From an uncultured Bacilli bacterium (GTDB lineage: Bacteria; Bacillota_I; Bacilli_A; RF39; UBA660), in NCBI GenBank assembly GCA_947631155.1, contig CANRKG010000003.1, positions 1 through 32,000 of the forward strand: 32,000 bases of DNA, in the 5' to 3' direction. Below the pieces are notes generated by a model. That model made no database searches and had not been told where the DNA came from. It saw only the letters and a program-made list of their open reading frames with translations. Below, piece after piece: positions 3,276 through 31,503 of the stretch (within the stretch, counting starts at the first letter, position 1; each line of letters starts with the position of its first letter). Both the position numbers and the translations under genes were made by a program.

Positions 3276-4067
3276 TTATCTTCTTATATGTTGTTCAAGT
3301 TTATCAATTATAAAATACATTAAATAAGAAATAATACCTAATATAACAACAGATGTAATAACAAGGTCAATATTAAATACTTGAGAACCATACATTATCA
3401 GGTATCCTAAACCATTTTTAGATACTAATAGTTCTCCCATAATAACACCAATTAAACTCATAGAGATATTTATTTTTAAAGCATTTATAACAGTAACATA
3501 ATTACTTGGTAAGACTACTTTAAAAAAGATTTGTCTTTTGGTGGCTTTTAATGATTTTAATAGAATAATATAATTTTTATTAGTAGAAATAAACCCATTA
3601 TAAATATTAATAATTGTAATAAAAGTATTAATTAATAAAGCCATAAATATTATAGAGTTAATACTAGCTCCAACCCATATAATTATTAAAGGACCTAAAG
3701 CAACTTTTGGTAAAGAATTTAAAATAGTTAAATAAGGATCTATTATTTTAGATAAAATTTTATTACTCCATAAGATAGTAGCAGATATAAGACCAATAAT
3801 AGAAGCAATACCAAAACTTAGTAGTACTTCGTATAAAGTAATTCCAATATGTTTAAATAAACTACCATCTTTAAATAAATCAATAGTGGTTTTAACAGCA
3901 TTAGTAGGACTAGAAGATAAGAAAGTATTAATAATATGATATCTAGATAGTAATTCCCAACCTATTAAAAAAGTAGCAATTATTAATAATCTAAAGATAA
4001 ATATAATAATTTTTTCTCGACGCTGTCTTTTTAAATACTTTTTATGTTCTTCACTAAATGTGGACAT
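3276..4067 (-). CDS. ABC transporter permease, NitT/TauT (SsuC/TauC-like) family
   Basis: A 263-aa ORF with multiple hydrophobic helices and a conserved cytoplasmic-loop region (LKSLKATKRQIFFKVVLP). Its start overlaps the stop of the upstream ATPase fragment, which indicates operon coupling. Confidence 0.8.
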   Translation of the reverse strand: MSTFSEEHKKYLKRQRREKIIIFIFRLLIIATFLIGWELLSRYHIINTFLSSSPTNAVKTTIDLFKDGSLFKHIGITLYEVLLSFGIASIIGLISATILWSNKILSKIIDPYLTILNSLPKVALGPLIIIWVGASINSIIFMALLINTFITIINIYNGFISTNKNYIILLKSLKATKRQIFFKVVLPSNYVTVINALKINISMSLIGVIMGELLVSKNGLGYLIMYGSQVFNIDLVITSVVILGIISYLMYFIIDKLEQHIRR

Positions 4068-4395
4068 CTAAATCCCTCCAAATAGTATCATAATAAGTAG
4101 AAAATTCTTTACATTTTCTATTATTTATAGGAGTTGATTTGTCTGTTAGATTAATTTCATATATACTTTTCACTTTAGCTGGTCGTTTTGTTAAAACAAT
4201 AACTCTATCTGACATACTAATAGCTTCAGCAATATCATGAGTTACCATAATAGCGGTTTTACCTTCATTTTTGATAATTTTATAAATATCATCACTAATA
4301 GCAAGACGGGATTGATAATCTAAAGCAGACATAGGTTCATCTAAAAGTAAAATATCTGGTTTGATGGCTAAGGTTCTGATTAAAGCAACTCTTTG
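4054..4395 (-). pseudogene. ABC transporter ATP-binding protein, C-terminal fragment (gene split by element 1)
   Basis: It encodes QRVALIRTLAIKPDILLLDEPMSALD (the end of the signature motif plus Walker B) and the H-loop VTHD. It has no Walker A and no native start; the MCLHNI start in the ORF track lies in element DNA. The missing N-terminal half is at 10305..10722. Confidence 0.9.
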
Positions 4396-4411
4396 AATGT
4401 TGTGTAGACAC
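4386..4411. repeat. Left junction (attL-like) of element 1: 10-bp direct repeat plus inverted-repeat arm
   Basis: CAACTCTTTG (4386..4395) is identical to 10305..10314. GAATGTTGTGTAGACAC (4395..4411) is an imperfect inverted copy of GTGTCTTTAAAACATTC (10285..10301). Confidence 0.8.
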
Positions 4412-4452
4412 AAGGTAATAATTGTTAGAAGTTAAGCTTATAATCAAATAAG

Positions 4453-4483
4453 TTGTTAAAACCATTAAAGATTGTGATATAAT
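4453..4483 (+). promoter_or_regulatory. Extended -10 promoter candidate for the first element-1 gene
   Basis: TGATATAAT (TGnTATAAT, 4475..4483) with a weak TTGTTA -35 at 4453..4458 and a long 19-nt spacer. The AAAGGAGG RBS follows, ahead of the ATG at 4509. Confidence 0.4.
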
Positions 4484-4508
4484 ATTATTAGTTAAAGGAG
4501 GAAATAAT

Positions 4509-5162
4509 ATGGCTGAAATAATTAGTAAAGAAGAATATGCAAAAATGACAAATGAAGAAAAGATAGAATATTTTTTAAAAAAAGAAAAAGATAGAACTGA
4601 GGATGAAATTCCACCAATGGCAGTAGCATTATCAAATGCACTAAAAGATGATGAACTGATAAAACATACAGCTTCAATTATAAAAAGAATGTGCGATGGA
4701 GAGCCGGTTAATAAAAATCCATTAACTGAAATTCCAACTCCTCAAATGGTATTATATGGGTTTTCAGGGGCTTTTAAAAGTGTATATTTTGATACAGAAG
4801 AAGAGTTAGAAGAATATGTAAAAACTCATGATACAAGTTTTGGAGGTACATGTGTAATAGAATATCTTGGTAATGTTGCAGGTCGTAGTGATGTAATTAG
4901 AACAACTTCTAAAAATCGTAAACCTATACTTTTAACTGCTTGTGATAGAGATGGATATGGGATTTATAATGAAGAAAGAAGTATATATCGTGGGGAATTT
5001 GTTTGGGAATATACTAATGGTGATATAGAGGATATGTATTCAGCATTTAGAGATAGAGGTATCGTTTTTGAAGATGATATATATGGTGAACTTGCAGAAC
5101 AAGATAGAAAATTATTACAGATGTGTAGAGAAAAAAATTTATTTAATATGGGAAAAAAATAA
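4509..5162 (+). CDS. Hypothetical protein (element 1 cargo, 217 aa)
   Basis: A long ORF with a strong RBS (AAAGGAGG, 7 nt spacing). I recognise no motif. The protein is acidic and has no TM segment. Confidence 0.6.
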   Translation: MAEIISKEEYAKMTNEEKIEYFLKKEKDRTEDEIPPMAVALSNALKDDELIKHTASIIKRMCDGEPVNKNPLTEIPTPQMVLYGFSGAFKSVYFDTEEELEEYVKTHDTSFGGTCVIEYLGNVAGRSDVIRTTSKNRKPILLTACDRDGYGIYNEERSIYRGEFVWEYTNGDIEDMYSAFRDRGIVFEDDIYGELAEQDRKLLQMCREKNLFNMGKK

Positions 5163-5335
5163 TTGAAAAGTGTCATTAAGAGTGATGCTTTTTTTGTGAA
5201 ATGTAGTGAACTAATTGACATAATAGATAAATAAGTATAGAATAACTAATGCAAATGAAATTTTGCAATATCGTTTATGAAAGGTGGTGTTAGTTATGTT
5301 ATATAGAGACTACACCAAAAATTCGTATAAATGAT

Positions 5336-5737
5336 TTGACCCGAGCTTATGTTTCGGGAGCCGGATATTACGATGTTATACGTGAAGTCGGAAACATAAT
5401 ATCCATACAACCTCTTTATAATCAAACTTTTGATGAATTACTCTTTGAATTTGTAAAAGGAAATAACTGGACATTTAAACATTTAGCAGAAGTACTAAAT
5501 GTAGATGAAAAAACATTATATCGTCATAGATATGGTGAAATAAACGATAGAGAAATGACAATAAATATATGTATTGCTCTTGGATTAGATTTAGTTTCTA
5601 CTATTATAGTTTTGATGTCAAAAGGTTATATTCTTAACCCTATTAATAGAATTGATAAAAAGATTATTGTTTTTGTTAATACTAATAGGGAAATAGGACT
5701 TCAAAGAATAATAAGTTATGAAGATTATATGAAATAA
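5336..5737 (+). CDS. Putative helix-turn-helix protein (133 aa); start uncertain (TTG)
   Basis: It contains an HTH-like stretch, WTFKHLAEVLNVDEKTLYRHRYGE. There is no in-frame ATG near the 5' end. The TTG at 5336 lies 1 nt after the stop of a 12-codon ORF (5296..5334) that owns the strong RBS AAGGTGGTG. Confidence 0.5.
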   Translation: MTRAYVSGAGYYDVIREVGNIISIQPLYNQTFDELLFEFVKGNNWTFKHLAEVLNVDEKTLYRHRYGEINDREMTINICIALGLDLVSTIIVLMSKGYILNPINRIDKKIIVFVNTNREIGLQRIISYEDYMK

Positions 5738-5755
5738 TGGTTGTATTGTATGCAA

Positions 5756-5784
5756 TGCGCATCCAAAAATGGATGTGCTTTTTT
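5756..5784 (+). terminator. Intrinsic terminator
   Basis: GCGCATCCA / AAAA / TGGATGTGC forms a stem (one G-U pair) followed by T7. Confidence 0.75.
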
Positions 5785-5852
5785 TGTGGCATAAAATGCC
5801 CGATAAATATTATAACTTGGGCTTAAAATGTTAGTCAGGAGGTGAAAAGACT

Positions 5853-6167
5853 ATGAACATAAGAGATTTAGTAATTGATGCTAAAGCTACAATTGGTGAA
5901 AATCTAGTATGTGTAGATGTTGTAGAAAAAGCTGTCTACAAAGATGGTGTTAAAACTGATGAGACAATATATACCTACGATATAGTTTGCATAGACCGTA
6001 AAATGCTTCATATCAATGTTAAAATTCCTGGCAAACAATTAATTAGTTTAGATGGTAAAGATGTTGTGTATGTATCACTTACAGGTTTAGTTATAAAACC
6101 ATACTTAATGAACAATCAATTAAATTTCACAGCAACAGCTACAAGCATCGTAGAATTAAAAAATTAA
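5853..6167 (+). CDS. Hypothetical 104-aa protein; possible HelP/DUF961-like helicase processivity factor, judged by position only
   Basis: RBS AGGAGGTG upstream. It has the same size and position (immediately upstream of the FtsK-like gene and Rep) as ICEBs1 helP and Tn916 orf22/23. I cannot verify any sequence-level match. Confidence 0.35.
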   Translation: MNIRDLVIDAKATIGENLVCVDVVEKAVYKDGVKTDETIYTYDIVCIDRKMLHINVKIPGKQLISLDGKDVVYVSLTGLVIKPYLMNNQLNFTATATSIVELKN

Positions 6168-6223
6168 GAGAGATTTTTCTCTCTTCCCTCTAGATAGGGA
6201 AAAAGGTAAAGGAGAAATGTATT

Positions 6224-7426
6224 ATGTTTAAAAAAATATTAAGTAAAATTAATGTATTTAAAATAATTATAGTAGAGCTATATATAGTGTTGGCTCAATT
6301 AATGTGGCACTTAAAAGAATATCTTTATACGTTAGCAAATATTCAAATTAAATCATTCTCTTACTATGTATACAACACAGGTATAACTGTATCACTAACA
6401 GCAATATTGATTGCTTTAATTGTTAAGTTAAAAAATCCAATTAATACAAAGAAGGAGGAAAAAATTATGTTGGATATAGGATTAAAAAATAGAAATAGTG
6501 AAATACCAAAATTAAAAGAAACATATAATGACCCTGATAAAGAAAATGGTGTTGTTTATAGATTTATAAGTAAAAATATACCAAAATCAAAGTTTGAGGA
6601 ATTTACTGACGAATTAGAAAGAGCTTATGATATAAACATATATGGTATGAGAGAAATACCTGGTAAAAATAAATATATAGATATCTATTGTGTACCAAAA
6701 ATCTTTGACACATTAAAAGAATTTAGATTATCAACAGAAGATAAATTTATGGATAATTTTATACATGAATTAGTTGTTGGAGGTACAAGAAGTGGTAAAA
6801 CTTTTTACGCAAAAGGTAGAATTGTAAAGGCAGCTATGAATTTAGAATTGAACGAAAATGAAGAAGTGGAACTTTTTGTAGCTGATTATAAAAATGAGGA
6901 TTTCATAGAGTTTAAAAATAAAGCTAATTATTATGGTTTTAATTCTTCAGTTGATGGCATAAATAAAGTATATGAAATTATGAATGAAAGAGCTAAAAAT
7001 GGTAAAGATAGTTCAAACTATAGCACCGTCATACTACTAATAGATGAATATAGCACTTTACTTGCATCCTTAAAGAAAGATAAAGCTAATGAAATAAAAG
7101 ATAATGTTGCTAGTTTATTAAGAATGGGAGCTAGTAAAAAAATTAAAGTTATTGTGATTGACCAGGGTGGATATTCAGAACTATTTCAAGGAGCTAGATT
7201 AAATTTTAAAAGTATAATTGGATTTTCACAAATGAGTAGTAGTCAAATAGAGATGTTATTTAAAGATTATAAATCTCAAATGAAAGAAATTAATAAACAA
7301 GGTGAAGCTTATCTTTGGGAAGATGGTAAACCAGAATTAACAAGAGTTAGGGTTATTAAATATAGTGAAGATGAAGAAAAAATAATAAGTAATGTGATTG
7401 GTAGCAAGATGGGAAAGGATAAATAA
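6224..7426 (+). CDS. FtsK/SpoIIIE-TcpA-like DNA translocase / coupling protein
   Basis: A 400-aa ORF with two N-terminal TM helices, Walker A GGTRSGKT and Walker B VILLIDEY. This architecture is typical of Firmicute ICE/IME coupling proteins. Confidence 0.75.
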   Translation: MFKKILSKINVFKIIIVELYIVLAQLMWHLKEYLYTLANIQIKSFSYYVYNTGITVSLTAILIALIVKLKNPINTKKEEKIMLDIGLKNRNSEIPKLKETYNDPDKENGVVYRFISKNIPKSKFEEFTDELERAYDINIYGMREIPGKNKYIDIYCVPKIFDTLKEFRLSTEDKFMDNFIHELVVGGTRSGKTFYAKGRIVKAAMNLELNENEEVELFVADYKNEDFIEFKNKANYYGFNSSVDGINKVYEIMNERAKNGKDSSNYSTVILLIDEYSTLLASLKKDKANEIKDNVASLLRMGASKKIKVIVIDQGGYSELFQGARLNFKSIIGFSQMSSSQIEMLFKDYKSQMKEINKQGEAYLWEDGKPELTRVRVIKYSEDEEKIISNVIGSKMGKDK

Positions 7427-7430
7427 GTTG

Positions 7431-7504
7431 GTGAGGTCGCACGGCTGTAAGCAAGTGCGATCCACTGCCACCGTAGGTGGCTTTGACTTGATATCTTATA
7501 ACAC
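7431..7504 (+). promoter_or_regulatory. Candidate oriT/double-strand origin (hairpins plus CTTGATA nick-site-like sequence)
   Basis: A locally GC-rich patch contains hairpins GGTCGCAC/GTGCGATC (7435..7462) and GCCACC-GTA-GGTGGC (7467..7481). It is followed by GACTTGATATCTTATAACAC (7485..7504). CTTGATA sits at 7487..7493. Confidence 0.55.
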
Positions 7505-7524
7505 AAAAACATTTAATATTTTTT

Positions 7525-8409
7525 ATGAAGATAGAACGATTAAAAGATAACCCTAAAATATGTTTAAATGCTGATAGCCAAGTTGTCGTAAAAGAAACAG
7601 GAAATCTAACCGAAGTTAAGTATATGATTAATAATACTGGTGGTGTAATTAGAAAAATAGATAAAGATAATTATTTTGATATTCGTTCAGGTGAAGTCAA
7701 AAGGTATGAACATAAAGCAAAATCTAGAAAAGACAATAAATCTTCAATTAAAAGAACGATGAGAAACTTAAGGGATATTATTAATACTAATATTACTGAT
7801 TATAAAAAAATATTATTCATTACTTTAACTTATAAGGAAAATATGACTAATTCTAAACAACTTTATCAAGATGTTAGAAAATTTCATCAAAAATTAAAAA
7901 CTTATTTAAAAAATAAAAATTTACCTTATGATTTTGAGTATATTTCGGCTACTGAATGTCAAGCTCGTGGAAGTTTTCATCAACATAATCTATACATCTT
8001 TAAAACGAAAGCTCCATTTATTAAGAATGATGAATTAGCTAAAATATGGGGGTTAGGTTATACAAAGATTAAATCTTTAAAAGGTGTTTCAAATATCGGT
8101 TTATATCTTACAGCATATTTAACTGATTTAGATTTAACTGAAAATTTACAAAAGAAAAATAAAAGAGTTACTAAAGCTATAATCAAGGGAAAAAGATTAT
8201 CTTTTATACCCAAAAATTTTCGTATATATAGGTGTTCAAAAAATATATTGAAACCTACTATTTATAAAACAACTGAAAAAGAAGCTATGGAAAAAGTAGA
8301 TAATTCTATTTTAACTTATGAAAAAACTATTCGTATTTCTAATTATGATGGTAAAACAATTAATATCATTAATTATAGAAATTACAACAATATTAAAAAT
8401 ACGAAATAA
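7525..8409 (+). CDS. HUH-type rolling-circle replication initiator / relaxase (pC194 Rep_1-like motifs)
   Basis: A 294-aa ORF with FITLTY (compare Rep motif 1, FLTLT), FHQHNLYIF (HUH-type His pair) and Tyr-containing LYLTAYLTD. There is no obvious SD before the ATG. Confidence 0.65.
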   Translation: MKIERLKDNPKICLNADSQVVVKETGNLTEVKYMINNTGGVIRKIDKDNYFDIRSGEVKRYEHKAKSRKDNKSSIKRTMRNLRDIINTNITDYKKILFITLTYKENMTNSKQLYQDVRKFHQKLKTYLKNKNLPYDFEYISATECQARGSFHQHNLYIFKTKAPFIKNDELAKIWGLGYTKIKSLKGVSNIGLYLTAYLTDLDLTENLQKKNKRVTKAIIKGKRLSFIPKNFRIYRCSKNILKPTIYKTTEKEAMEKVDNSILTYEKTIRISNYDGKTINIINYRNYNNIKNTK

Positions 8410-8466
8410 TAAGAGATATCTCATATAAGAAAAAATGAAGCATATCTTTTGGTAAGGAGGTTTTGC

Positions 8467-8592
8467 TATGAAATATAATGTTATTGATTTAATAGAACCA
8501 ACTCTAACCGATGAAGAATTAAAAAATATTATTAATAAAAAATTATTTAATTTTATTATGTTTATGGAAATGAGTTTAAATAATAGTGGATA
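8467..8592 (+). CDS. Small ORF (41 aa) immediately upstream of the recombinase
   Basis: AAGGAGG lies 7 nt before the ATG. The product is MKYNVIDLIEPTLTDEELKNIINKKLFNFIMFMEMSLNNSG. This ORF is not in the supplied track because it is too short. Confidence 0.4.
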
Positions 8593-8664
8593 GATGCTAT
8601 AATTATATCGGTTATAAGTTTAACTTAATTAATAATTATTGCCTTAAGAATGGAGGTAATAGTT

Positions 8665-10272
8665 ATGAATGAAATGGAGAGTGAAAGTAAACTATTAAGA
8701 GTTGGTAATTATTATCGACTATCAGATGAAGATAGAGATAAACAAAACAAGTTAGATGATAGCGAAAGTATTAAAAATCAAAAACATTTATTATTAGATG
8801 AAATAGCAAAGCATCCAAATTATGTATTAGTAGATGAATATTGTGATGAAGATTTATCAGGAGCTGGAACTTATAGACCTGAATTTGAAAGACTAATAAG
8901 AGATTGTGAACTTGGTAAAATTGATATTGTATTATGTAAGAGTCAATCAAGATTTTCAAGAGATATGGAAATTATAGAAAAATACTTACATAATAAATTT
9001 ATTGAATGGAATGTAAGATTTATAAGTTTATCAGATAATGCTGATACCTCTAATCCAGGTAATAAAAAATCTAGACAAATAAATGGTTTAGTAAATGAAT
9101 GGTATTTGGAAGATGTTTCAAATAATATAAGAAGTGCTTTTCATTCAAAAATGAAACAAGGCGAATTTATATCTCCCTTTGCTTCCTATGGTTATGAAGT
9201 GTCTGAATATGATAACAATAAATTAGTTATTGATCCTGTAGCTAGTGAAGTTGTAAAAGATATCTTTGATTTATATTTAAGTGGTCTTGGTTTTACAGGA
9301 ATAGCTAAACATTTAAATAGTAAAAATATACCTTGCCCATCACTTTATAAATATCAAAAGGGAATTAAATTAAATGTAATTAGCAATAGACCTAGAGAGC
9401 AAATAAAATGGAGTGCAAATGCTATTAAAACAATTTTAACAAATGAATTATATTTAGGTCATTTAATACAAGGTAAAAGAACAACAGTTAGTTATAAAAA
9501 TCATAAAATTATAAGTAAAGATAAAAGTCTATGGATTAAAAAAGAAAATATGCACGAAGCTATTATTGATGAAGAAACCTTTAATAAAGTTCAAATGGAA
9601 ATGAAAGAAAGAACTAAACCTATCAAAAAGACAGGTATGGTTCATATCTTTTCAGGTAAAGTATTTTGTTTAGAATGTAATCATTATTTAAGAAAAAAGA
9701 ATTCACCAAGACACGAATATTTAGTTTGTTCTAATAATCGTGATGGCTACGATGATTGTATCAATAAAGCATCTATGAGATATGATACTTTAGAAGATAT
9801 TGTTTTAAATGCTATTAATGAAAAAATTAAAAAGTTCTATGATGAAGAGATTTTAAGGCAAGAAGAAAGTAATAAGAATATATCTCGTTTTGCTGATAAA
9901 ATAAAATCTTTAGAAAAAGAAAAGCTAGAGCTTGAAAGTAATTTATCTAAAAATAAAAATTATCTAAAAAGTCTTTATGAAGATAAAGTAAATGGATTAA
10001 TTAATTCTGAACAATTTAAAGATTTATTGGATGACTATAATAAGAATGAAGATATTTACAAAAAACAAATAATACAAATAAATAATGATATTAATTTTTA
10101 CACTTTAAAACAAGAATCATCTTTAAATAATAATAAATTATTTAGTAAATATAAAACTCTTAATAAATTAAATCGTGTTATTGTTGATGAATTTATAGAT
10201 AAAATTTATATCGGAAAAATAAATAAAGAAACTAATACAAGAAATATCCAAATAAAATGGAATTTTGAATAA
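8665..10272 (+). CDS. Large serine recombinase (element 1 integrase)
   Basis: An N-terminal resolvase-type catalytic domain (YYRLSDED Ser, SQSRFSRD) is followed by a recombinase domain, a Cys-rich zinc-ribbon region (CLECNH...C..NRDGYDDC) and a coiled-coil tail. I prefer the ATG at 8665 (GGAGG at 8652..8656, 8 nt spacing) over the track start at 8650. Confidence 0.9.
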   Translation: MNEMESESKLLRVGNYYRLSDEDRDKQNKLDDSESIKNQKHLLLDEIAKHPNYVLVDEYCDEDLSGAGTYRPEFERLIRDCELGKIDIVLCKSQSRFSRDMEIIEKYLHNKFIEWNVRFISLSDNADTSNPGNKKSRQINGLVNEWYLEDVSNNIRSAFHSKMKQGEFISPFASYGYEVSEYDNNKLVIDPVASEVVKDIFDLYLSGLGFTGIAKHLNSKNIPCPSLYKYQKGIKLNVISNRPREQIKWSANAIKTILTNELYLGHLIQGKRTTVSYKNHKIISKDKSLWIKKENMHEAIIDEETFNKVQMEMKERTKPIKKTGMVHIFSGKVFCLECNHYLRKKNSPRHEYLVCSNNRDGYDDCINKASMRYDTLEDIVLNAINEKIKKFYDEEILRQEESNKNISRFADKIKSLEKEKLELESNLSKNKNYLKSLYEDKVNGLINSEQFKDLLDDYNKNEDIYKKQIIQINNDINFYTLKQESSLNNNKLFSKYKTLNKLNRVIVDEFIDKIYIGKINKETNTRNIQIKWNFE

Positions 10273-10284
10273 AAATAGTTATAA

Positions 10285-10314
10285 GTGTCTTTAAAACATT
10301 CATCCAACTCTTTG
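10285..10314. repeat. Right junction (attR-like) of element 1
   Basis: GTGTCTTTAAAACATTC (10285..10301) is the inverted partner of 4395..4411. CAACTCTTTG (10305..10314) is the direct repeat of 4386..4395. Confidence 0.8.
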
Positions 10315-10722
10315 TCTCATACCTCCAGATAGACTAGCTGGATATTTATCTTTAAATTCATATAATCCATAAGTTTTTAGTAAATCTAATACATATTGTT
10401 TACTTTCATCATTTAATTTCTTAGTTACTTCTAAACCAATTAAACAATTATCTAAAATAGTTCTCCAAAAGAATAGGGAATCTTGTTGTAACATATAACC
10501 GATAGTAATATTTTCTTTTAAGTGGAACATTCCCCCAGATTTTTTTTCTAACATAGAAAGAATGGAAAGTATTGTTGACTTTCCACATCCACTGGGTCCT
10601 ACTATTGAAATAAATTCTTTATCATAAACATCAAATGTTATATCTTCTAAAGCTTTAATTTCACTTTTTTTATCATGGTAGCTTTTTTTCAAATGCTGAA
10701 TACTTAAAATTTTATTTTTCAT
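10305..10722 (-). pseudogene. ABC transporter ATP-binding protein, N-terminal fragment
   Basis: It has Walker A GPSGCGKST, a Q-loop region and the signature LSGGMRQRV, then runs into element DNA (G, stop). It continues at 4395 as QRVALIRTLA. Confidence 0.9.
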
Positions 10723-12556: not shown

Positions 12557-13261
12557 ATGGAAAAACAAACACTTGATGTTATGGCGGACAAATTATCAGA
12601 AAGAATGAAAGGCATTAATGATTGGATAAGAAGTAATCCAAATACAGATCCTAATTTTTATGAAATAATGGATTGTGAAGTAGAATTAGGAAAGTTATTA
12701 TCATACAAGAATCAGTATTATCAGGAAAATGGTTATCCAGAAAAGAAAAATGATAATGGCACAAACTCTTTATATACACATCATGAAATTTTTAAGTTTG
12801 ATGAACATGTAAAAAAAGCACATGATGAATTAAAGGAAATGATTAATTTAAGAGGTTCAGGAATAGCGAAAGTATTACAAGATATTCCTGAACTATATAA
12901 TATGTGGCAAGAAATAGGTTATCGTACTGGAATAGCAGAATATCATGATCCAAAAGGCGATATGTCTGAAATAAAAAAGAAAATTCTTTGTAAGAGTGTA
13001 AGTATTCCATTTTATATTTGGCAAGAAAGAAGAACAAACCCTGACTTCCAATATGATAATACAGTTGAATATGATGAGTTAAAAGAAATGTATGATTTGT
13101 ATAGTGCACAAGTAGGAAAACAAACAATAAATGAACATAAAGACGGAAGTTTTTATGAAGGACCGCAATTTGGTGAAGAAATTGAAAATTTAATTGGCTT
13201 TATTGAAAAATCTTATAAATATAGTACACAATATGGTAACGATGGAGCAAAGGCAAGATAA
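12557..13261 (+). CDS. Hypothetical protein (234 aa)
   Basis: A long ORF with GGGAGG RBS. I recognise no motif. The protein is soluble and rich in aromatic and acidic residues. Confidence 0.6.
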   Translation: MEKQTLDVMADKLSERMKGINDWIRSNPNTDPNFYEIMDCEVELGKLLSYKNQYYQENGYPEKKNDNGTNSLYTHHEIFKFDEHVKKAHDELKEMINLRGSGIAKVLQDIPELYNMWQEIGYRTGIAEYHDPKGDMSEIKKKILCKSVSIPFYIWQERRTNPDFQYDNTVEYDELKEMYDLYSAQVGKQTINEHKDGSFYEGPQFGEEIENLIGFIEKSYKYSTQYGNDGAKAR

Positions 13262-13572: not shown

Positions 13573-15276
13573 TTGGATTTATATGATGTTAGAAAAAAAC
13601 TTAATATGGGAATATCACTTACTAATATAAAACTTAAAGTTACTGATTATGCCAGAGTATCAACTGATTCTCATGAGCAAAAAAAATCTCTTCAAAATCA
13701 AGTAGAACATTTTGAGGAGTATATAAAGAAAAATCCCCAGTGGACTTATATAACAGGATATGTAGATGATGGAATAACTGGTACTAGTGATGTAAAAAGA
13801 GATAATTTTATGAAGATGATTGAAGATGCTAGACAGGGTAATTTTGATTTAATTATTACAAAAGAAATTTCTAGATTTTCTAGAAATACTCTTGATAGTA
13901 TTAAATATACTAGAGAACTTTTATCATATGGAGTAGCTGTGTTATTTGTAAATGACAATATAAATACAGCTATGCCTGATTCTGAACTTCGACTTACTAT
14001 AATGGCGTCCATGGCTCAAGATGAGATTAGACGTTTATCAGAACGTGTTAGATTTGGAATGAATAGAGCTATAGAACGTAGAGAAATACTTGGAAACAAT
14101 TTACTTTATGGTTATAAAAAAGATAAGAATACAGGTATATTGAATATTATTCCTGATGAAGCTAGTTTAATTAAGCAAATATATGAATACTATGCCATAG
14201 AAGAATTATCTCTTTCTAAAATTGTGAAAATTTTAAATAGTGAAAACAAAAAAAATCATCAAGGTCATAAGTGGTATATTTCAACAATTTCTAGAATGAT
14301 TGAAAATCCTAAGTATAAAGGTTACTATTGTGCAAGAAAGTCGGAAGTAGTAGATTATATGACTAAGAAAATAAAATATTTTGAAAAGGATCGTTGGATT
14401 ATCCAAGAAGATAAAGCTAAAATTCCCCCACTAGTTTCAGAAGATTTATGGGAAAGAGCTAATAAACGGTTAATTTCAAGAAAAAAAGCGTTTAAGTGTC
14501 GAAATCAAGATAAAGAAATTTATACAAATAGATATTTATATAGTGCTAAAATTTATTGTAAAGATCATAATACAGCTTTTTATAGAAGAAAGTTTAGAAA
14601 AAGTAGCGATGATATAACATGGGTTTGTGCAGAATATCTCAAAAATGGGAAAAATGCTTGTGATTCACCTAATATTAGAGAATCAGAATTAGATTATATT
14701 TTTAAAGATTTAATAGAAAAATTACCAATTAATTTTGATGAAATTATTGATGTTCTTATGAAGTGTTATAAATGCGTAGAAATAGATAAGGAACTTAAGG
14801 AAGAAATTGTTACCAGAAAAAAAGAGTTAGACAAACTTTATATAAAAAAAGATAAAATATTAGAACTTAATATTCAAGGTAGTTTATCTAATGATGAGTT
14901 TATGATAAAAAATAATACGTTTAATGACAATATAAATAAACTTACTAAAGAGATTAATGAACTTAAAAATTCACAGGAAAAGATAGACAAAGTAGACAAT
15001 ATAACTAAAGAGTTTGCAACTATTGTAAAGTTAAAAGTTAATTCGCAATCTACAATAAATAAAATAATTAGTTTGATACTTAAGTATATGAAAGTTTCGA
15101 AGATTAATAATGATAAGAATAGAGTAAGATTAGATATCTTTTTATCTTATGGAGAAAGTTATAAAAAGCCATTATTAGGTTCTTATTTAAAAAATATTTA
15201 TGAGTTTAAAAGAGGATATGATACTAAAGGTACAAAAAGATATACAGTTTACTACCAGGTTAATTGTTATTTATAA
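13573..15276 (+). CDS. Large serine recombinase (element 2)
   Basis: A 567-aa ORF with the catalytic YARVSTD, ISRFSRN and MAQDEIRRLSERV motifs, followed by a recombinase domain, a Cys-rich region (CKDH...C..YLKNGKNAC) and a coiled-coil tail. It has a TTG start with GGAGG 7 nt upstream. Confidence 0.9.
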   Translation: MDLYDVRKKLNMGISLTNIKLKVTDYARVSTDSHEQKKSLQNQVEHFEEYIKKNPQWTYITGYVDDGITGTSDVKRDNFMKMIEDARQGNFDLIITKEISRFSRNTLDSIKYTRELLSYGVAVLFVNDNINTAMPDSELRLTIMASMAQDEIRRLSERVRFGMNRAIERREILGNNLLYGYKKDKNTGILNIIPDEASLIKQIYEYYAIEELSLSKIVKILNSENKKNHQGHKWYISTISRMIENPKYKGYYCARKSEVVDYMTKKIKYFEKDRWIIQEDKAKIPPLVSEDLWERANKRLISRKKAFKCRNQDKEIYTNRYLYSAKIYCKDHNTAFYRRKFRKSSDDITWVCAEYLKNGKNACDSPNIRESELDYIFKDLIEKLPINFDEIIDVLMKCYKCVEIDKELKEEIVTRKKELDKLYIKKDKILELNIQGSLSNDEFMIKNNTFNDNINKLTKEINELKNSQEKIDKVDNITKEFATIVKLKVNSQSTINKIISLILKYMKVSKINNDKNRVRLDIFLSYGESYKKPLLGSYLKNIYEFKRGYDTKGTKRYTVYYQVNCYL

Positions 15277-25743: not shown

Positions 25744-27834
25744 ATGGACATAAGTAATCTCAATGAATTTCAAAAGGAAGCAGTTTTATATAATCAAGGA
25801 CCTCTTCTAATTTTAGCAGGAGCTGGTAGTGGTAAAACACGCGTTTTAACAACAAAGATAGCATATTTAATAAAAGATTTAAATGTAAGTCCTTATAATA
25901 TTTTGGCTATTACATTTACTAATAAAGCAGCCCAAGAAATGAAGGAAAGATTAGATTTATTAGTTGGAATTGATTCTAAAAATATTCAGGTATCAACTTT
26001 TCATAGTTTTGGACTTAAAATACTTAGAGAAAATTGTGAAGCTTTGGGATATGATCGTAATTTTGTTATCATGGATAGTGATGACTCTTTAACCGTTGTA
26101 AAGAAAATATTAAAACAATTAGATTATGATCCTAAAGTATACAATCCTAGAGCTATTAGAAACAAAATTAGTAGTTGTAAAAATGAATTGATTTTACCAA
26201 ATAATTATGAAAAATACGCAGTTAGTGAATATGAAAAAGTAGTTTTAAAAGTATATGAGAAATATGAACAAAAATTAAAACAAAATAACTCAGTTGATTT
26301 TGATGATTTATTAATTCTACCAATTATTTTATTTAAAGATAATCCTGCAATTTTAGAAAAATATCAAGATAGATTTAAGTATATTTTAATTGATGAATAT
26401 CAAGACACAAATGAAGCTCAATATATTATATCAAAAATGATAGGAGCCAAATATAGAAATATTTGTTGTGTTGGTGATAATGATCAATCAATTTATTCAT
26501 TTAGAGGAGCAAATTATAAGAATATTTTAAATTTTGAAAAAGATTATAAAGATGCTAAGATAATTTTACTAGAAGAAAATTATCGTTCAACGCAAAATAT
26601 TTTAAAAGCGGCGAATAGTGTTATTAAAAATAATAAATCAAGGAAAGATAAAAATTTGTGGACTTCCAATAAGGAAGGGGAAAAAATTAATTATTATCGT
26701 GCATATAATGAAAGAGATGAAGCTCAATATGTTATTAGGAAAATAAAAGAATTAAGTAACAAAAATCTATCTTATCAGGATATGGCGATTTTATATAGAA
26801 CTAATGCTCAATCTCGTATTTTAGAAGAAGAATTACTAAAGGAAAATTTACCTTATCGAGTAGTTGGTAGTTTTTATTTCTATAGTCGTAAGGAAATAAA
26901 AGATTTAATTGCTTATTTAAGACTTATCCATAATAGTAAAGATAATGTTAGTTTAGTTCGAATTATAAATACTCCTAAAAGAGGAATTGGTCTAAAGACT
27001 ATAGAAAATTTAACTACAAAAGCAGATTTAGAAAATAAAAGTATTTATGAAGTTATATCATCAGGTAAAGAATTGGCATTTAAAGAAACCATAGAAAAAT
27101 TAAAAGTTTTATCTCAAGAATTAACCCTAACAGAATTAATTGATAAAGTATTAGATGCGACAGGTTTACGACAAGAGTTAGAATCAGAAAATACTTTAGA
27201 TAGTGAAATAAGATTAGAAAACTTAGAAGAATTTAAATCAATTACTAAATCTTTTGAAGAAAGAGAAGGTTTAATTTCATTAGAGGACTTTTTATTAGAA
27301 ATTAGTTTAATTAGTGATGTTGAAGAATATAAAGATGATACTAATCGCATCAGTTTAATGACAGTTCATTCTGTTAAAGGATTAGAATTTGATCATGTAT
27401 TTGTAGTTGGAATGGAAGAAGGAATTTTTCCACATATAAATTCATTAATGGAAGAAAGTGAATTAGAAGAAGAAAGAAGACTTTGTTATGTTGCTATTAC
27501 TAGAGCTAAGGAATGTCTATATTTAGTTAATGCTAAAAGAAGAACTTTATTTGGTAAGGATCAAATTAACCATCCAAGTAGATTTATTAGTGAAATAGAT
27601 AAAGAATTAATAAATAGTAATACTAACATAGAAGAAAAAGAGATAAAATTAGATAAAACAGAAGTGTTTAGAGATGAAGAGATAGATTATCAAGTAGGTG
27701 ATTATGTATATCATGAAACATTTGGAACTGGTCGAGTAGTAGAAGTTACTAATACTTTGGTAAGTGTTGCTTTTAAACATCCTCATGGTATAAAAAAATT
27801 AATGAAAAATCATAAGAAATTAACAAAAGTATAG
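25744..27834 (+). CDS. pcrA: ATP-dependent DNA helicase PcrA/UvrD
   Basis: It has AGAGSGKT (motif I), TFTNKAA, the DEYQDTN Walker B, the YRS, VHSVKGLEF and YVAITRA motifs, and a C-terminal GD.V.H..FG.G.V tail. Confidence 0.9.
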   Translation: MDISNLNEFQKEAVLYNQGPLLILAGAGSGKTRVLTTKIAYLIKDLNVSPYNILAITFTNKAAQEMKERLDLLVGIDSKNIQVSTFHSFGLKILRENCEALGYDRNFVIMDSDDSLTVVKKILKQLDYDPKVYNPRAIRNKISSCKNELILPNNYEKYAVSEYEKVVLKVYEKYEQKLKQNNSVDFDDLLILPIILFKDNPAILEKYQDRFKYILIDEYQDTNEAQYIISKMIGAKYRNICCVGDNDQSIYSFRGANYKNILNFEKDYKDAKIILLEENYRSTQNILKAANSVIKNNKSRKDKNLWTSNKEGEKINYYRAYNERDEAQYVIRKIKELSNKNLSYQDMAILYRTNAQSRILEEELLKENLPYRVVGSFYFYSRKEIKDLIAYLRLIHNSKDNVSLVRIINTPKRGIGLKTIENLTTKADLENKSIYEVISSGKELAFKETIEKLKVLSQELTLTELIDKVLDATGLRQELESENTLDSEIRLENLEEFKSITKSFEEREGLISLEDFLLEISLISDVEEYKDDTNRISLMTVHSVKGLEFDHVFVVGMEEGIFPHINSLMEESELEEERRLCYVAITRAKECLYLVNAKRRTLFGKDQINHPSRFISEIDKELINSNTNIEEKEIKLDKTEVFRDEEIDYQVGDYVYHETFGTGRVVEVTNTLVSVAFKHPHGIKKLMKNHKKLTKV

Positions 27835-30480: not shown

Positions 30481-31503
30481 ATGAATAGTATTTATAACAT
30501 GGATATAGAAGAAATGGAAGAGTATTTTTTGCGCCATGACGATAAAAAATTTCATGCAGATCAATTGTTTAATTGGTTGTATGAAAAAAGAGTTTCGAGT
30601 TATGAAGAAATAACTAATATCAAAAAAGAAACATTAAATAATTTAAAACAAGAATATAGTCTTAGTAAATTAACTTTGGTAAATGTAGAAAAAGATACAG
30701 ATGTTAATAAATATTTATTTAAACTTAATGATGGACAACATATAGAAGCCGTACTAATGAATCATAATTATGGAAATAGTATTTGTGTTTCAAGTCAGGT
30801 TGGCTGTAATATGGGCTGTAAATTTTGTGAAAGTGGAAGAAGAAAAAAGGTAAGAAATTTAGAAACAGCGGAAATGGTTTTACAAATATTACAAGTAGAA
30901 GAAGATATAAAAGCAAGAATTAGTCATGTTGTAATCATGGGAATTGGTGAACCTTTTGATAATTATGATAATGTTTTACGTTTTATTAAAATTATAAATC
31001 ATCCTAAAGGTTTACAAATCGGAAGTAGACATATTACTATTTCTAGTTGTGGAATTGTGCCTAAAATAGAAGAATTTATGGATTTTCCTTATCAAGTCAA
31101 TTTGGCTATTTCTTTACATGCGCCAAATGACGAACTAAGAAGTAAGTTAATGCCTATTAATAAGGTTTATCCATTAGAACAATTAATGAATACTTTAAAA
31201 AAATATTTACAAAAAACAAATCGTAGGATTACTTTTGAATATATTTTATTAGATGGTATTAATGATCAAACAACTCATGCGGAACAATTATCTAAGTTAA
31301 TTAAAGGAATTAATGCTTATGTTAATTTAATACCATATAATGCTACAGATAATTTAGGATTTAATCGTAGTAAAACTATACAAATTATGAAATTTTATGA
31401 TATACTTAAGAAGAATAAGATTAATGTAACAATCAGACGTGAGTTTGGAAGTAAAATAAGCGCCGCATGTGGACAACTCAGAAGTAAGGAGGAGGCTTTA
31501 TGA
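30481..31503 (+). CDS. rlmN: 23S rRNA/tRNA (adenine-C2)-methyltransferase RlmN (radical SAM)
   Basis: It has a CNMGCKFCESG radical-SAM cluster, GIGEP, the LAISLHAP and IPYN motifs, and a C-terminal ACGQLR. It is followed by a PP2C phosphatase gene, the conserved Firmicute gene order. Confidence 0.9.
   Translation: MNSIYNMDIEEMEEYFLRHDDKKFHADQLFNWLYEKRVSSYEEITNIKKETLNNLKQEYSLSKLTLVNVEKDTDVNKYLFKLNDGQHIEAVLMNHNYGNSICVSSQVGCNMGCKFCESGRRKKVRNLETAEMVLQILQVEEDIKARISHVVIMGIGEPFDNYDNVLRFIKIINHPKGLQIGSRHITISSCGIVPKIEEFMDFPYQVNLAISLHAPNDELRSKLMPINKVYPLEQLMNTLKKYLQKTNRRITFEYILLDGINDQTTHAEQLSKLIKGINAYVNLIPYNATDNLGFNRSKTIQIMKFYDILKKNKINVTIRREFGSKISAACGQLRSKEEAL

Follow-up and report, generated by a model that had tools for sequence, protein, structure and literature searches.

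Results

The region between the FtsK-like gene and rep

The DNA analysed here is a stretch of 32,000 nucleotides from an uncultured Bacilli bacterium (assembly GCA_947631155.1, contig CANRKG010000003.1, positions 1 to 32,000 of the forward strand). It is called the window, and all positions refer to it unless another record is named. The window contains an inserted element of 5.9 kb (approximately 4396-10304, 26% GC) that splits an ABC-transporter ATPase gene and carries six co-directional genes, which encode two small unknown proteins, a protein of 104 aa, a P-loop protein of 400 aa, a replication initiator (Rep) and a large serine recombinase. Our subject is the intergenic gap of 98 nt (7427-7524) between the FtsK-like open reading frame (ORF) for the 400-aa protein, which ends at 7426, and rep, which starts at 7525. 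The full sequence of the gap is GTTGGTGAGGTCGCACGGCTGTAAGCAAGTGCGATCCACTGCCACCGTAGGTGGCTTTGACTTGATATCTTATAACACAAAAACATTTAATATTTTTT. An earlier note, made from the sequence, had proposed this gap as a candidate origin of transfer (oriT) or double-strand origin (dso) of replication, with a GC-rich double hairpin followed by a CTTGATA nick sequence. The length, sequence and coordinates of the gap were as described there, including CTTG at 7487-7490 within GACTTGATATCTTATAACAC (7485-7504), and the analysis presented below supports the oriT/dso interpretation.

The candidate origin core, TTGACTTGATA, is located at 7483-7493 on the + strand, 31 nt before rep, and by analogy with phiX174 it is predicted to be nicked by Rep between G7490 and A7491. 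Two hairpins were found before the core when the + strand was folded as DNA. Hairpin 1 (7431-7465, +) is GC-rich, a long stem-loop with imperfect pairing that encloses a smaller hairpin. It begins 5 nt past the stop codon of the upstream gene and forms the 5' edge of the conserved block of origin and rep; the span 7435-7462 given for it previously corresponds to its core. Hairpin 2 (GCCACC-gta-GGTGGC; 7467-7481, +) was confirmed at the position proposed, and has a 6-bp stem with a C-GNA-G triloop, ending 5 nt before ACTTG. On the 3' side of the predicted nick follows an AT-rich block, TCTTATAACACAAAAAC (7494-7510, +), the sequence of which is kept in close relatives. This block may be a Rep-binding or melting region.

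As single-stranded DNA (ssDNA) the gap had a fold energy of -16.7 kcal/mol (z = -3.4 in comparison to dinucleotide shuffles), and its complementary strand folded equally well. The GC content at 7429-7490 was 0.58, which is the highest for 60 nt in the element (next best 0.47; whole element 0.26), in agreement with the earlier description of this patch as standing out. A search for tRNA genes found none in the window, and the Rfam search at the site gave no family even at E values up to 1. As there was no tRNA, tmRNA or Rfam match, the GC patch was ruled out as a tRNA-derived attachment (att) site or a known RNA.

The heptamer CTTGATA by itself has 9 copies in the window compared to 7.3 expected, and being at chance frequency it is by itself no evidence. 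The longer string ACTTGATAT-N3-ATAACAC occurs only once in the window, where 0.11 copies are expected even when 2 mismatches are allowed. A second exact copy of TTGACTTGATA was observed at 31090-31100 (-), inside an rlmN-like gene and without hairpins. With at most 1 mismatch TTGACTTGATA has 8 matches in the window in comparison to 10 expected, and this second copy is taken as chance.

Conservation of the core in related rep loci

Related rep loci were fetched (n = 80), 73 of them with enough upstream sequence and 59 unique. Of the 73 loci, 65 have W-CTTG-W-T on the rep strand at most 300 nt upstream of rep, with a background of 0.14 per 310 nt. Its distance to the rep start was usually 30-75 nt across the family. 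The longer pattern TT[AG][AT]CTTG[AT]T was present within the same 300 nt in 53 of the 80 loci, compared to 0.031 per kb elsewhere, and several of the loci without it had one-base variants. At the positions that were free of search constraint, T was found at -4 in 59/59 and at -3 in 53/59 unique loci, with A or G at -2. CTTG was invariant, with the flanking TT, across Reps down to approximately 33% identity and in hosts from Bacillaceae to Clostridia. The family consensus of the core was tATTAACTTGATtat, and the conserved core can be written as TT[A/G]ACTTGAT[T/A]. The seventh base of the proposed heptamer is T in most relatives.

The core together with the downstream ATCTTATAACACAAAAA was identical in relatives down to 74% Rep identity, and the block 7494-7510 was identical in loci L001-L006, with one change in L007. 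More distant relatives had tATTAACTTGATtat...ATtAcnAGAAAA, i.e. a looser downstream block. The ATAACAC that the window has in common with phiX174 was not kept outside the closest relatives, and since it is absent from the consensus of the distant ones, it is lineage-specific.

The core was also detected on small replicons, including plasmids of 1.5-3 kb, where it lies 45 nt before Rep5 on plasmid pGTG5 (1.5 kb) and upstream of rep on plasmid pBAW301, and it recurs in IMG/VR contigs. Because replicons of 1.5-1.8 kb hold little besides rep, the core there is most simply a replication origin. In the Fusobacterium plasmid pKH9 (L083, NC_003091) the core ACTTGATATATAGGATATC is found at 3882, approximately 100 nt past an FtsK/SpoIIIE gene; it is not directly before rep, which is approximately 1.4 kb away, counted across the record start. 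In Bajarodino virus 9 (L086, PQ006132, classified as an inovirus) GC-rich hairpins and then TATTAACTTGATTAT are located at 640-725, between the Zot gene and rep, and the core is 43 nt before the replication initiator, so that the origin architecture is the same as in the integrated element. Plasmid pSTK1 was considered as well and set aside, as it falls in the pT181-family literature and is not evidently relevant.

Hairpins upstream of the core

The 70 nt before the core had a median fold z of -3.4 against shuffles, with 68% of the 59 unique loci below -2, and a GC content of 0.52 compared to 0.39 for the loci. The last hairpin pair was usually 4-8 nt before ACTTG. In 23 of the 59 unique relatives a perfectly paired stem of 5 bp or longer ends 3-11 nt ahead of the core, in comparison to 6% in shuffles, and these 23 proximal hairpins had 19 distinct stem sequences. 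The stems thus vary yet stay paired, with GCCACC/GGTGGC, GCCGCC/GGCGGC, GCAAAC/GTTTGC and others among them. The alignment of homologous elements that the earlier note had suggested as a check therefore shows both the core and a hairpin before it to be conserved. MAFFT misplaced some stems when applied to the short hairpins of distant relatives, and for this reason covariation was counted on close relatives and on independently detected hairpins. In the close relatives 92% of cells were paired and 5 pairs were changed on both sides, which was reached by 0 of 500 shuffles; slid controls gave approximately 30%.

The triloops were of the GNA type in 10 of 13 cases, all closed by C-G and on the + strand only, and a conserved G-T pair was likewise + strand-specific. 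The inner loops were often GCGAAGC or GCGAAAGC. Loops of the C-GNA-G and GCGAAGC types are exceptionally stable DNA mini-hairpin motifs (PMC13037366, PMC3201870). The + strand, to which these hairpin features are specific, is the strand predicted to be nicked and displaced.

Two close relatives of the element, L003 and L007, have a different FtsK-like P-loop protein of 479-511 aa (4453-5892 in L003) before the same block of hairpins, core and rep. This protein had no tblastn match to the 400-aa protein of the window, and in L007 its ORF of 511 aa ends approximately 95 nt before the core. The DNA homology to L007 begins exactly at 7435, at the foot of hairpin 1 on its 5' side, and continues as far as rep. 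As the homology starts at hairpin 1 where the upstream gene has been replaced, the hairpins are inherited with rep. In these relatives the coupling-protein gene (see below) was swapped and the origin stayed with rep.

The Rep protein

The gene rep (7525-8409, +) encodes an HUH rolling-circle initiator or relaxase of 294 aa, as judged from its family profile, motifs and AlphaFold2 model. Rep is a member of PF23343 (REP_ORF2-G2P; 62.9 bits, cut-off 27.8, E 3.5e-17), and this domain was present in 115 of 117 Rep homologues. The score against Rep_1 (PF01446) was 20.5 bits, which is below the cut-off of 33.2. No NCBIfam model matched Rep, and PF02486, the MOBT/Rep_trans relaxase domain, had no match in it. 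Placement by profile search had also been proposed as a check, and it identified a PF23343 HUH initiator without indicating a family with a different nick consensus.

Among 33 homologues, TLTY of the motif I FITLTY was kept, with T100 and T102 invariant, both histidines of the HUH motif H152-Q-H154 were invariant, and in the Tyr motif Y194 was invariant and Y198 was found in at least 90%. The three motifs named in the earlier note are thus conserved. The pC194-family membership suggested along with them did not hold, as shown by the Rep_1 score below cut-off and by the YxxxY of the Tyr motif. Motif III of Rep, GLYLTAYLTD (Y194-L-T-A-Y198), has the same two-tyrosine spacing YxxxY as GFYVAKYVNK of phiX174 gpA, unlike the active site of pC194 RepA, which is E-M-A-K-Y. 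In hhalign, Rep and pC194 RepA were aligned over motifs I-II only, with E 1e-4 and a probability of 58%. The comparison with phiX174 gpA (Phage_GPA) was not significant (E 0.17), though the right motifs were aligned. By sequence, pC194 RepA, a distant relative, is the only detectable one with a mapped nick site.

A sequence search of Rep against PDB gave noise only, and the structure was therefore predicted. The AlphaFold2 model had a predicted local distance difference test (pLDDT) score of 86.5 and placed the tyrosines on a helix at 191-200. Foldseek against PDB gave probabilities of 0.9-0.99 to gemini/circovirus Rep and RepB nuclease domains, with E values above 1e-3, and the closest folds were those predicted for viral 'ORF2/G2P', 'gene A' and Microvirus initiators, with BFVD matches that included 'Replication gene A protein' and Microvirus initiators at E 1e-11 to 1e-6. 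With motif I, the HUH motif, the Tyr motif on a helix and the fold, Rep belongs to the HUH endonuclease superfamily. Its relatives reside on plasmids of 1.5-2.5 kb, on pKH9 and on an inovirus-like genome. The start codon of rep is TTG in L003-L005. For two homologues, P0003 and P0013, the gene calls (318 aa and 309 aa) reach back upstream across the origin, probably as an artefact of annotation.

The element and its other genes

The boundaries of the element are marked by a 10-bp repeat, CAACTCTTTG, found on the left at 4386-4395, inside the split ABC ATPase gene, and on the right at 10305-10314. The N-terminal half of the ATPase (ABC_tran) is encoded at 10300-10722 (-) and the C-terminal half at 4054-4413 (-), and both junctions read ...QRV.

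The gene directly upstream of the gap (6224-7426, +) encodes a membrane-anchored P-loop ATPase of 400 aa. Its family profile matched 6o1w-6o1z, 'DNA translocase coupling protein', in PDB with E 2e-12, ahead of FtsK and EccC, and PF01580 was detected in 8 of 9 orthologues. Based on these two results the protein is a TcpA-type (FtsK-like) coupling protein. The synteny of coupling-protein gene, origin and rep recurs in approximately 20 loci.

The 104-aa protein (5853-6167, +) is kept next to the coupling-protein gene in L001-L011. Its model was of low confidence (pLDDT 62), and the PDB matches, with E 0.02-0.1, were all oligonucleotide-binding (OB) folds (SSB, PriB and OrfM of ICESt3), which weakly suggests that it may be a HelP/OrfM-like ssDNA-binding accessory factor of the helicase or relaxosome. 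A canonical terminator-like hairpin followed by T7 was observed at 5757-5778 (+), after a gene for a 133-aa helix-turn-helix-like protein, and its position suggests that the OB-fold gene, the coupling-protein gene and rep form a separate transcription unit. The large serine recombinase (8650-10272, +), the integrase of the element, has Resolvase, Recombinase and Zn_ribbon_recom domains.

Another large serine recombinase, of 567 aa (13573-15276, +), together with 12557-13261, is found 3.3 kb right of the element and may mark a further integrated element or a remnant. The remaining window is ordinary chromosome, encoding PcrA/UvrD, RlmN, MMPL and others. Inside the PcrA/UvrD gene (25744-27834) a match to RF03531 (n00280, 'C. 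difficile sRNA included into helicase gene') was above the gathering score at 27439-27538 (+). PcrA-type helicases are a host factor of rolling-circle replicons.

Discussion

Proposed function of the region

The sequence, its fold propensity, the family-wide conservation before rep, the protein families and the synteny were observed directly, and in our view they make it likely that 7431-7510 is the cognate origin of the HUH Rep of the element. The nick position G7490/A7491 is predicted by analogy with phiX174 and pC194. The same nick would most likely also serve as oriT, given the TcpA-type coupling-protein gene in front of rep, and this again draws on analogy.

According to the proposed mechanism, the serine recombinase would excise the element of approximately 5.9 kb as a circle. 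Rep would recognise the origin, with the GC-rich hairpins of the + strand, 5-10 nt 5' of the cleavage site, marking the site first where they are extruded from supercoiled DNA and once more in the single strand after its displacement. Using one of Y194 and Y198, Rep would cut the + strand between CTTG and AT (G7490/A7491) and remain on the 5' phosphate, and rolling-circle synthesis would be primed by the 3'-OH, with a polymerase of the host and a PcrA-type helicase taking part. Once the origin has been regenerated and displaced, it would be cut by the second tyrosine and the strand would be re-ligated to a single-stranded circle. The coupling protein would pass the complex of Rep and ssDNA on to a secretion system provided by a helper conjugative element, and on transfer rep and the integrase gene would enter the recipient first.

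Some observations weigh against this proposal. The nick position is assigned by analogy, while Rep falls outside the phiX174 and pC194 families by profile score. The base 3' of the proposed nick is not fixed, being A in 50/59 and T in 9/59 loci. Hairpins are not universal, as several Bacillaceae mini-plasmids have the core and no strong hairpin. The 32-kb window holds no helper conjugation genes, and no recognisable Shine-Dalgarno sequence was observed at the rep start (7500-7527). The dependence of hairpin strength on the upstream gene and the result of a terminator scan, both given below, point in the same direction.

One alternative is that the core is a rolling-circle replication origin only, with no conjugative role, and that the FtsK-like protein acts in translocation of double-stranded DNA, as the TraB-like proteins of actinomycetes, or in segregation. 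This would agree with the presence of the same core in rep-only mini-plasmids and in the inovirus-like phage, both without a coupling protein, and with the lack of type IV secretion system (T4SS) genes nearby. In the literature found that deals with integrative mobilizable elements (IMEs) of this type, neither a demonstration of transfer nor a defined oriT for the class with phage-Rep-like (PHA00330) relaxases was found, and the helper elements of IMEs with TcpA and an initiator of rolling-circle replication (RCR) are listed as 'proposed' only (PMC5704250). However, the solved structure of a TcpA-type conjugative coupling protein is a better match to the upstream protein than FtsK is, and the synteny of the approximately 20 loci persists through replacement of the coupling protein. 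Furthermore, the Rep_1 initiators of pC194/pUB110-type plasmids, which are related HUH proteins, work as relaxases in ICEBs1-mediated mobilisation with the TcpA-type ConQ (PMC5714925). We therefore consider a purely replicative origin unlikely, though a serious contender.

Other explanations concern the hairpins or the core separately. If the hairpins were mainly a terminator or attenuator, or stabilised the 3' end of the coupling-protein RNA, they would limit read-through into rep and only ACTTGAT would belong to the origin. Hairpin 2 with TTTGACTT indeed passes a simple terminator scan (5 T in 8), and hairpin 1, as described, starts just after the coupling-protein stop codon. Strong hairpins were found in 19/19 loci with TcpA, in 18/24 with another co-directional ORF upstream and in 3/16 without one, an approximate split, since hairpins in loci of very high GC content, for example L025 and L027, receive z-scores that understate their strength; to track an upstream co-directional gene is what a terminator or attenuator would do. 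Nevertheless, a run of at least 4 T after the hairpin was found in 1 of 34 relatives with strong hairpins, with a median of 4 T in 8, whereas the canonical terminator-like site of the element (5757-5778) has its T7. In addition, the hairpin is inherited with rep and not with the upstream gene, its triloops are of the DNA-specific C-GNA-G type, and hairpins also stand before the core on some mini-plasmids and the phage. Termination as the main role of the hairpins is thus rather improbable. The hairpins could also be a single-strand origin (sso) for the lagging strand, folding in the displaced or transferred + strand and recruiting RNA polymerase or primase; lying upstream of the nick, they would be exposed last. 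An ssDNA replicon requires such an origin, the ssos of rolling-circle plasmids are usually just upstream of the dso, and the GNA loops and the conserved G-T pair are + strand-specific. On the other hand, the structure covers only approximately 50 nt and showed neither hexamers resembling a promoter nor any known sso motif, priming needs no tight spacing of 4-8 nt to the core, and the mini-plasmids without hairpins must prime elsewhere, which leaves this role distinctly unlikely. As the role of the hairpins, Rep recognition is tentatively favoured over attenuation and lagging-strand priming. It is very improbable that the core, instead of being a cleavage site, is a promoter or operator of rep or matches by chance. 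TTGACT does resemble a -35 hexamer, and CTTGATA alone is at chance frequency. As a -35 box it was rejected, since neither the window nor the family consensus has a -10 hexamer at 16-18 nt, and the promoter scan listed no promoter over 7483. The core also lies as little as 6-75 nt from the start codon, and an invariant CTTG with TT from Bacillaceae to Clostridia is a uniformity not expected of a -35 box.

Significance of the probable origin

IMEs that combine a coupling protein of the TcpA type with a Rep-like 'non-canonical relaxase' have been reported as very common in Bacillota. Neither the type of element nor the chemistry or the nick motif is new, and our results overturn nothing. New are the family-wide definition of an origin for this Rep family and its occurrence in IMEs, mini-plasmids and a filamentous phage alike. 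A description of the origin of this Rep family was not found in the searchable literature: string searches with the core sequence gave unrelated primer matches only, one unrelated paper was returned for CTTGATA as a nick site in rolling circle, and the preprint on a pKH9 shuttle vector does not define the origin. The core of 11 nt, with a hairpin 4-8 nt upstream, gives a concrete definition with which one can test where the nick falls, what the two tyrosines do, whether a replication origin doubles as oriT and whether DNA mini-hairpins guide an HUH enzyme. The motif can also serve to annotate the origins of many carriers of this Rep, namely cryptic mini-plasmids, inovirus-like genomes and IMEs.

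More tentatively, the DNA mini-hairpin of the + strand, TTAACTTGAT and the two-tyrosine HUH Rep might together form a portable cassette found across IMEs with TcpA-type coupling proteins, cryptic plasmids of 1.5-3 kb and filamentous phages, with a nick of the phiX174/pC194 type that doubles as oriT in IMEs. We regard this as a real possibility that falls a little short of being probable. If true, the cassette would supply the undefined oriT of IMEs with non-canonical relaxases of the PHA00330 type, together with a searchable signature.

Comparison with known systems

In the phiX174 record the sequence at the 30-nt origin is CAACTTGATATTAATAACAC / cccCAACTTGATATTAATAACACtat, and the rep_origin feature is placed at the A that follows CTTG (A4306). 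The resemblance of the window to it, as claimed in the earlier note, is correct in that both have ACTTGATAT and ATAACAC, with a spacer of 3 nt in the window and 2 nt in phiX174; the claim does not extend to the family, in which ATAACAC, as described above, is confined to the closest relatives. The two-tyrosine motif G-x-Y-x-x-x-Y is common to gpA and Rep, and Microviridae initiators are among the nearest predicted folds. By contrast, the phiX174 origin is inside gene A and has no 5' hairpin, and the sequence relation between Rep and gpA is not significant.

The dso of pC194/pUB110-type plasmids (Rep_1, PF01446) likewise has a CTTGAT(A) core that follows a hairpin and lies upstream of rep, on the rep-sense strand. 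In pC194, read on the rep strand, the hairpin is followed by cttatCTTGATAATAAggg / ctttcttatCTTGATAATAAggg approximately 190 nt upstream of rep (core 993-999), in comparison to 31 nt here. RepA and Rep have motif I (F-x-TLT) and the HUH motif in common, whereas the active site is E-x-x-x-Y in RepA and YxxxY in Rep, and pC194 is a plasmid while the present element is integrated. The pC194 hairpin just 5' of the nick core (L082, 1000-1045, -) was observed to have the loop TAGCGA (gagcgTAGCGAaaaa), which we take to resemble the CS-6 motif of ssoA-type single-strand origins.

In ICESt3, Tn916 and ICEBs1 (MOBT, Rep_trans) the nick region is found between, or at the junction of, the genes for coupling protein and relaxase, and it functions in transfer as well as in plasmid-like replication (PMC6499999, PMC3542172). 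The oriT of ICESt3 in the coupling protein/relaxase intergenic region was shown experimentally (PMC6499999), and in ICEBs1 one nick serves for both transfer and replication, with PcrA (PMC3542172). The earlier note had compared the layout to ICEBs1, for which an oriT between the two genes was assumed. An oriT in such a gap is found in ICESt3 (PMC6499999), whereas in ICEBs1 it is inside the nicK fragment and not in the conQ-nicK gap (PMC3542172), and ICESt3 is thus the better analogy. A tentative and weak further parallel is the gene for the 104-aa protein upstream of the coupling-protein gene, as the OB-fold matches of this protein include OrfM of ICESt3. These elements differ from the present one in that their relaxase family is unrelated (PF02486, not HUH), their nick sequence is different and they carry their own T4SS.

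The layout of the element is known from IMEs of Bacillota in which a TcpA-type coupling-protein gene is located upstream of a gene for a relaxase resembling RCR initiators, especially Rel_PHA00330 (Coluzzi 2017, Guedon 2017; PMC5357655, PMC5704250). The link between PF23343 and PHA00330 is indirect, through the Rep of pKH9, which is cited for that class and is 31% identical to Rep. The streptococcal IME classes of the RCR type have tyrosine integrases, in contrast to the serine integrase found here, and the host here is, unlike theirs, an uncultured low-GC Bacilli lineage. Disruption of a gene by insertion through a serine integrase is also a feature of IMEs (PMC5357655). Similarly to these elements, the present one is small and integrated, encodes an integrase, lacks T4SS genes and has the TcpA-type coupling-protein gene directly upstream of a Rep-like gene.

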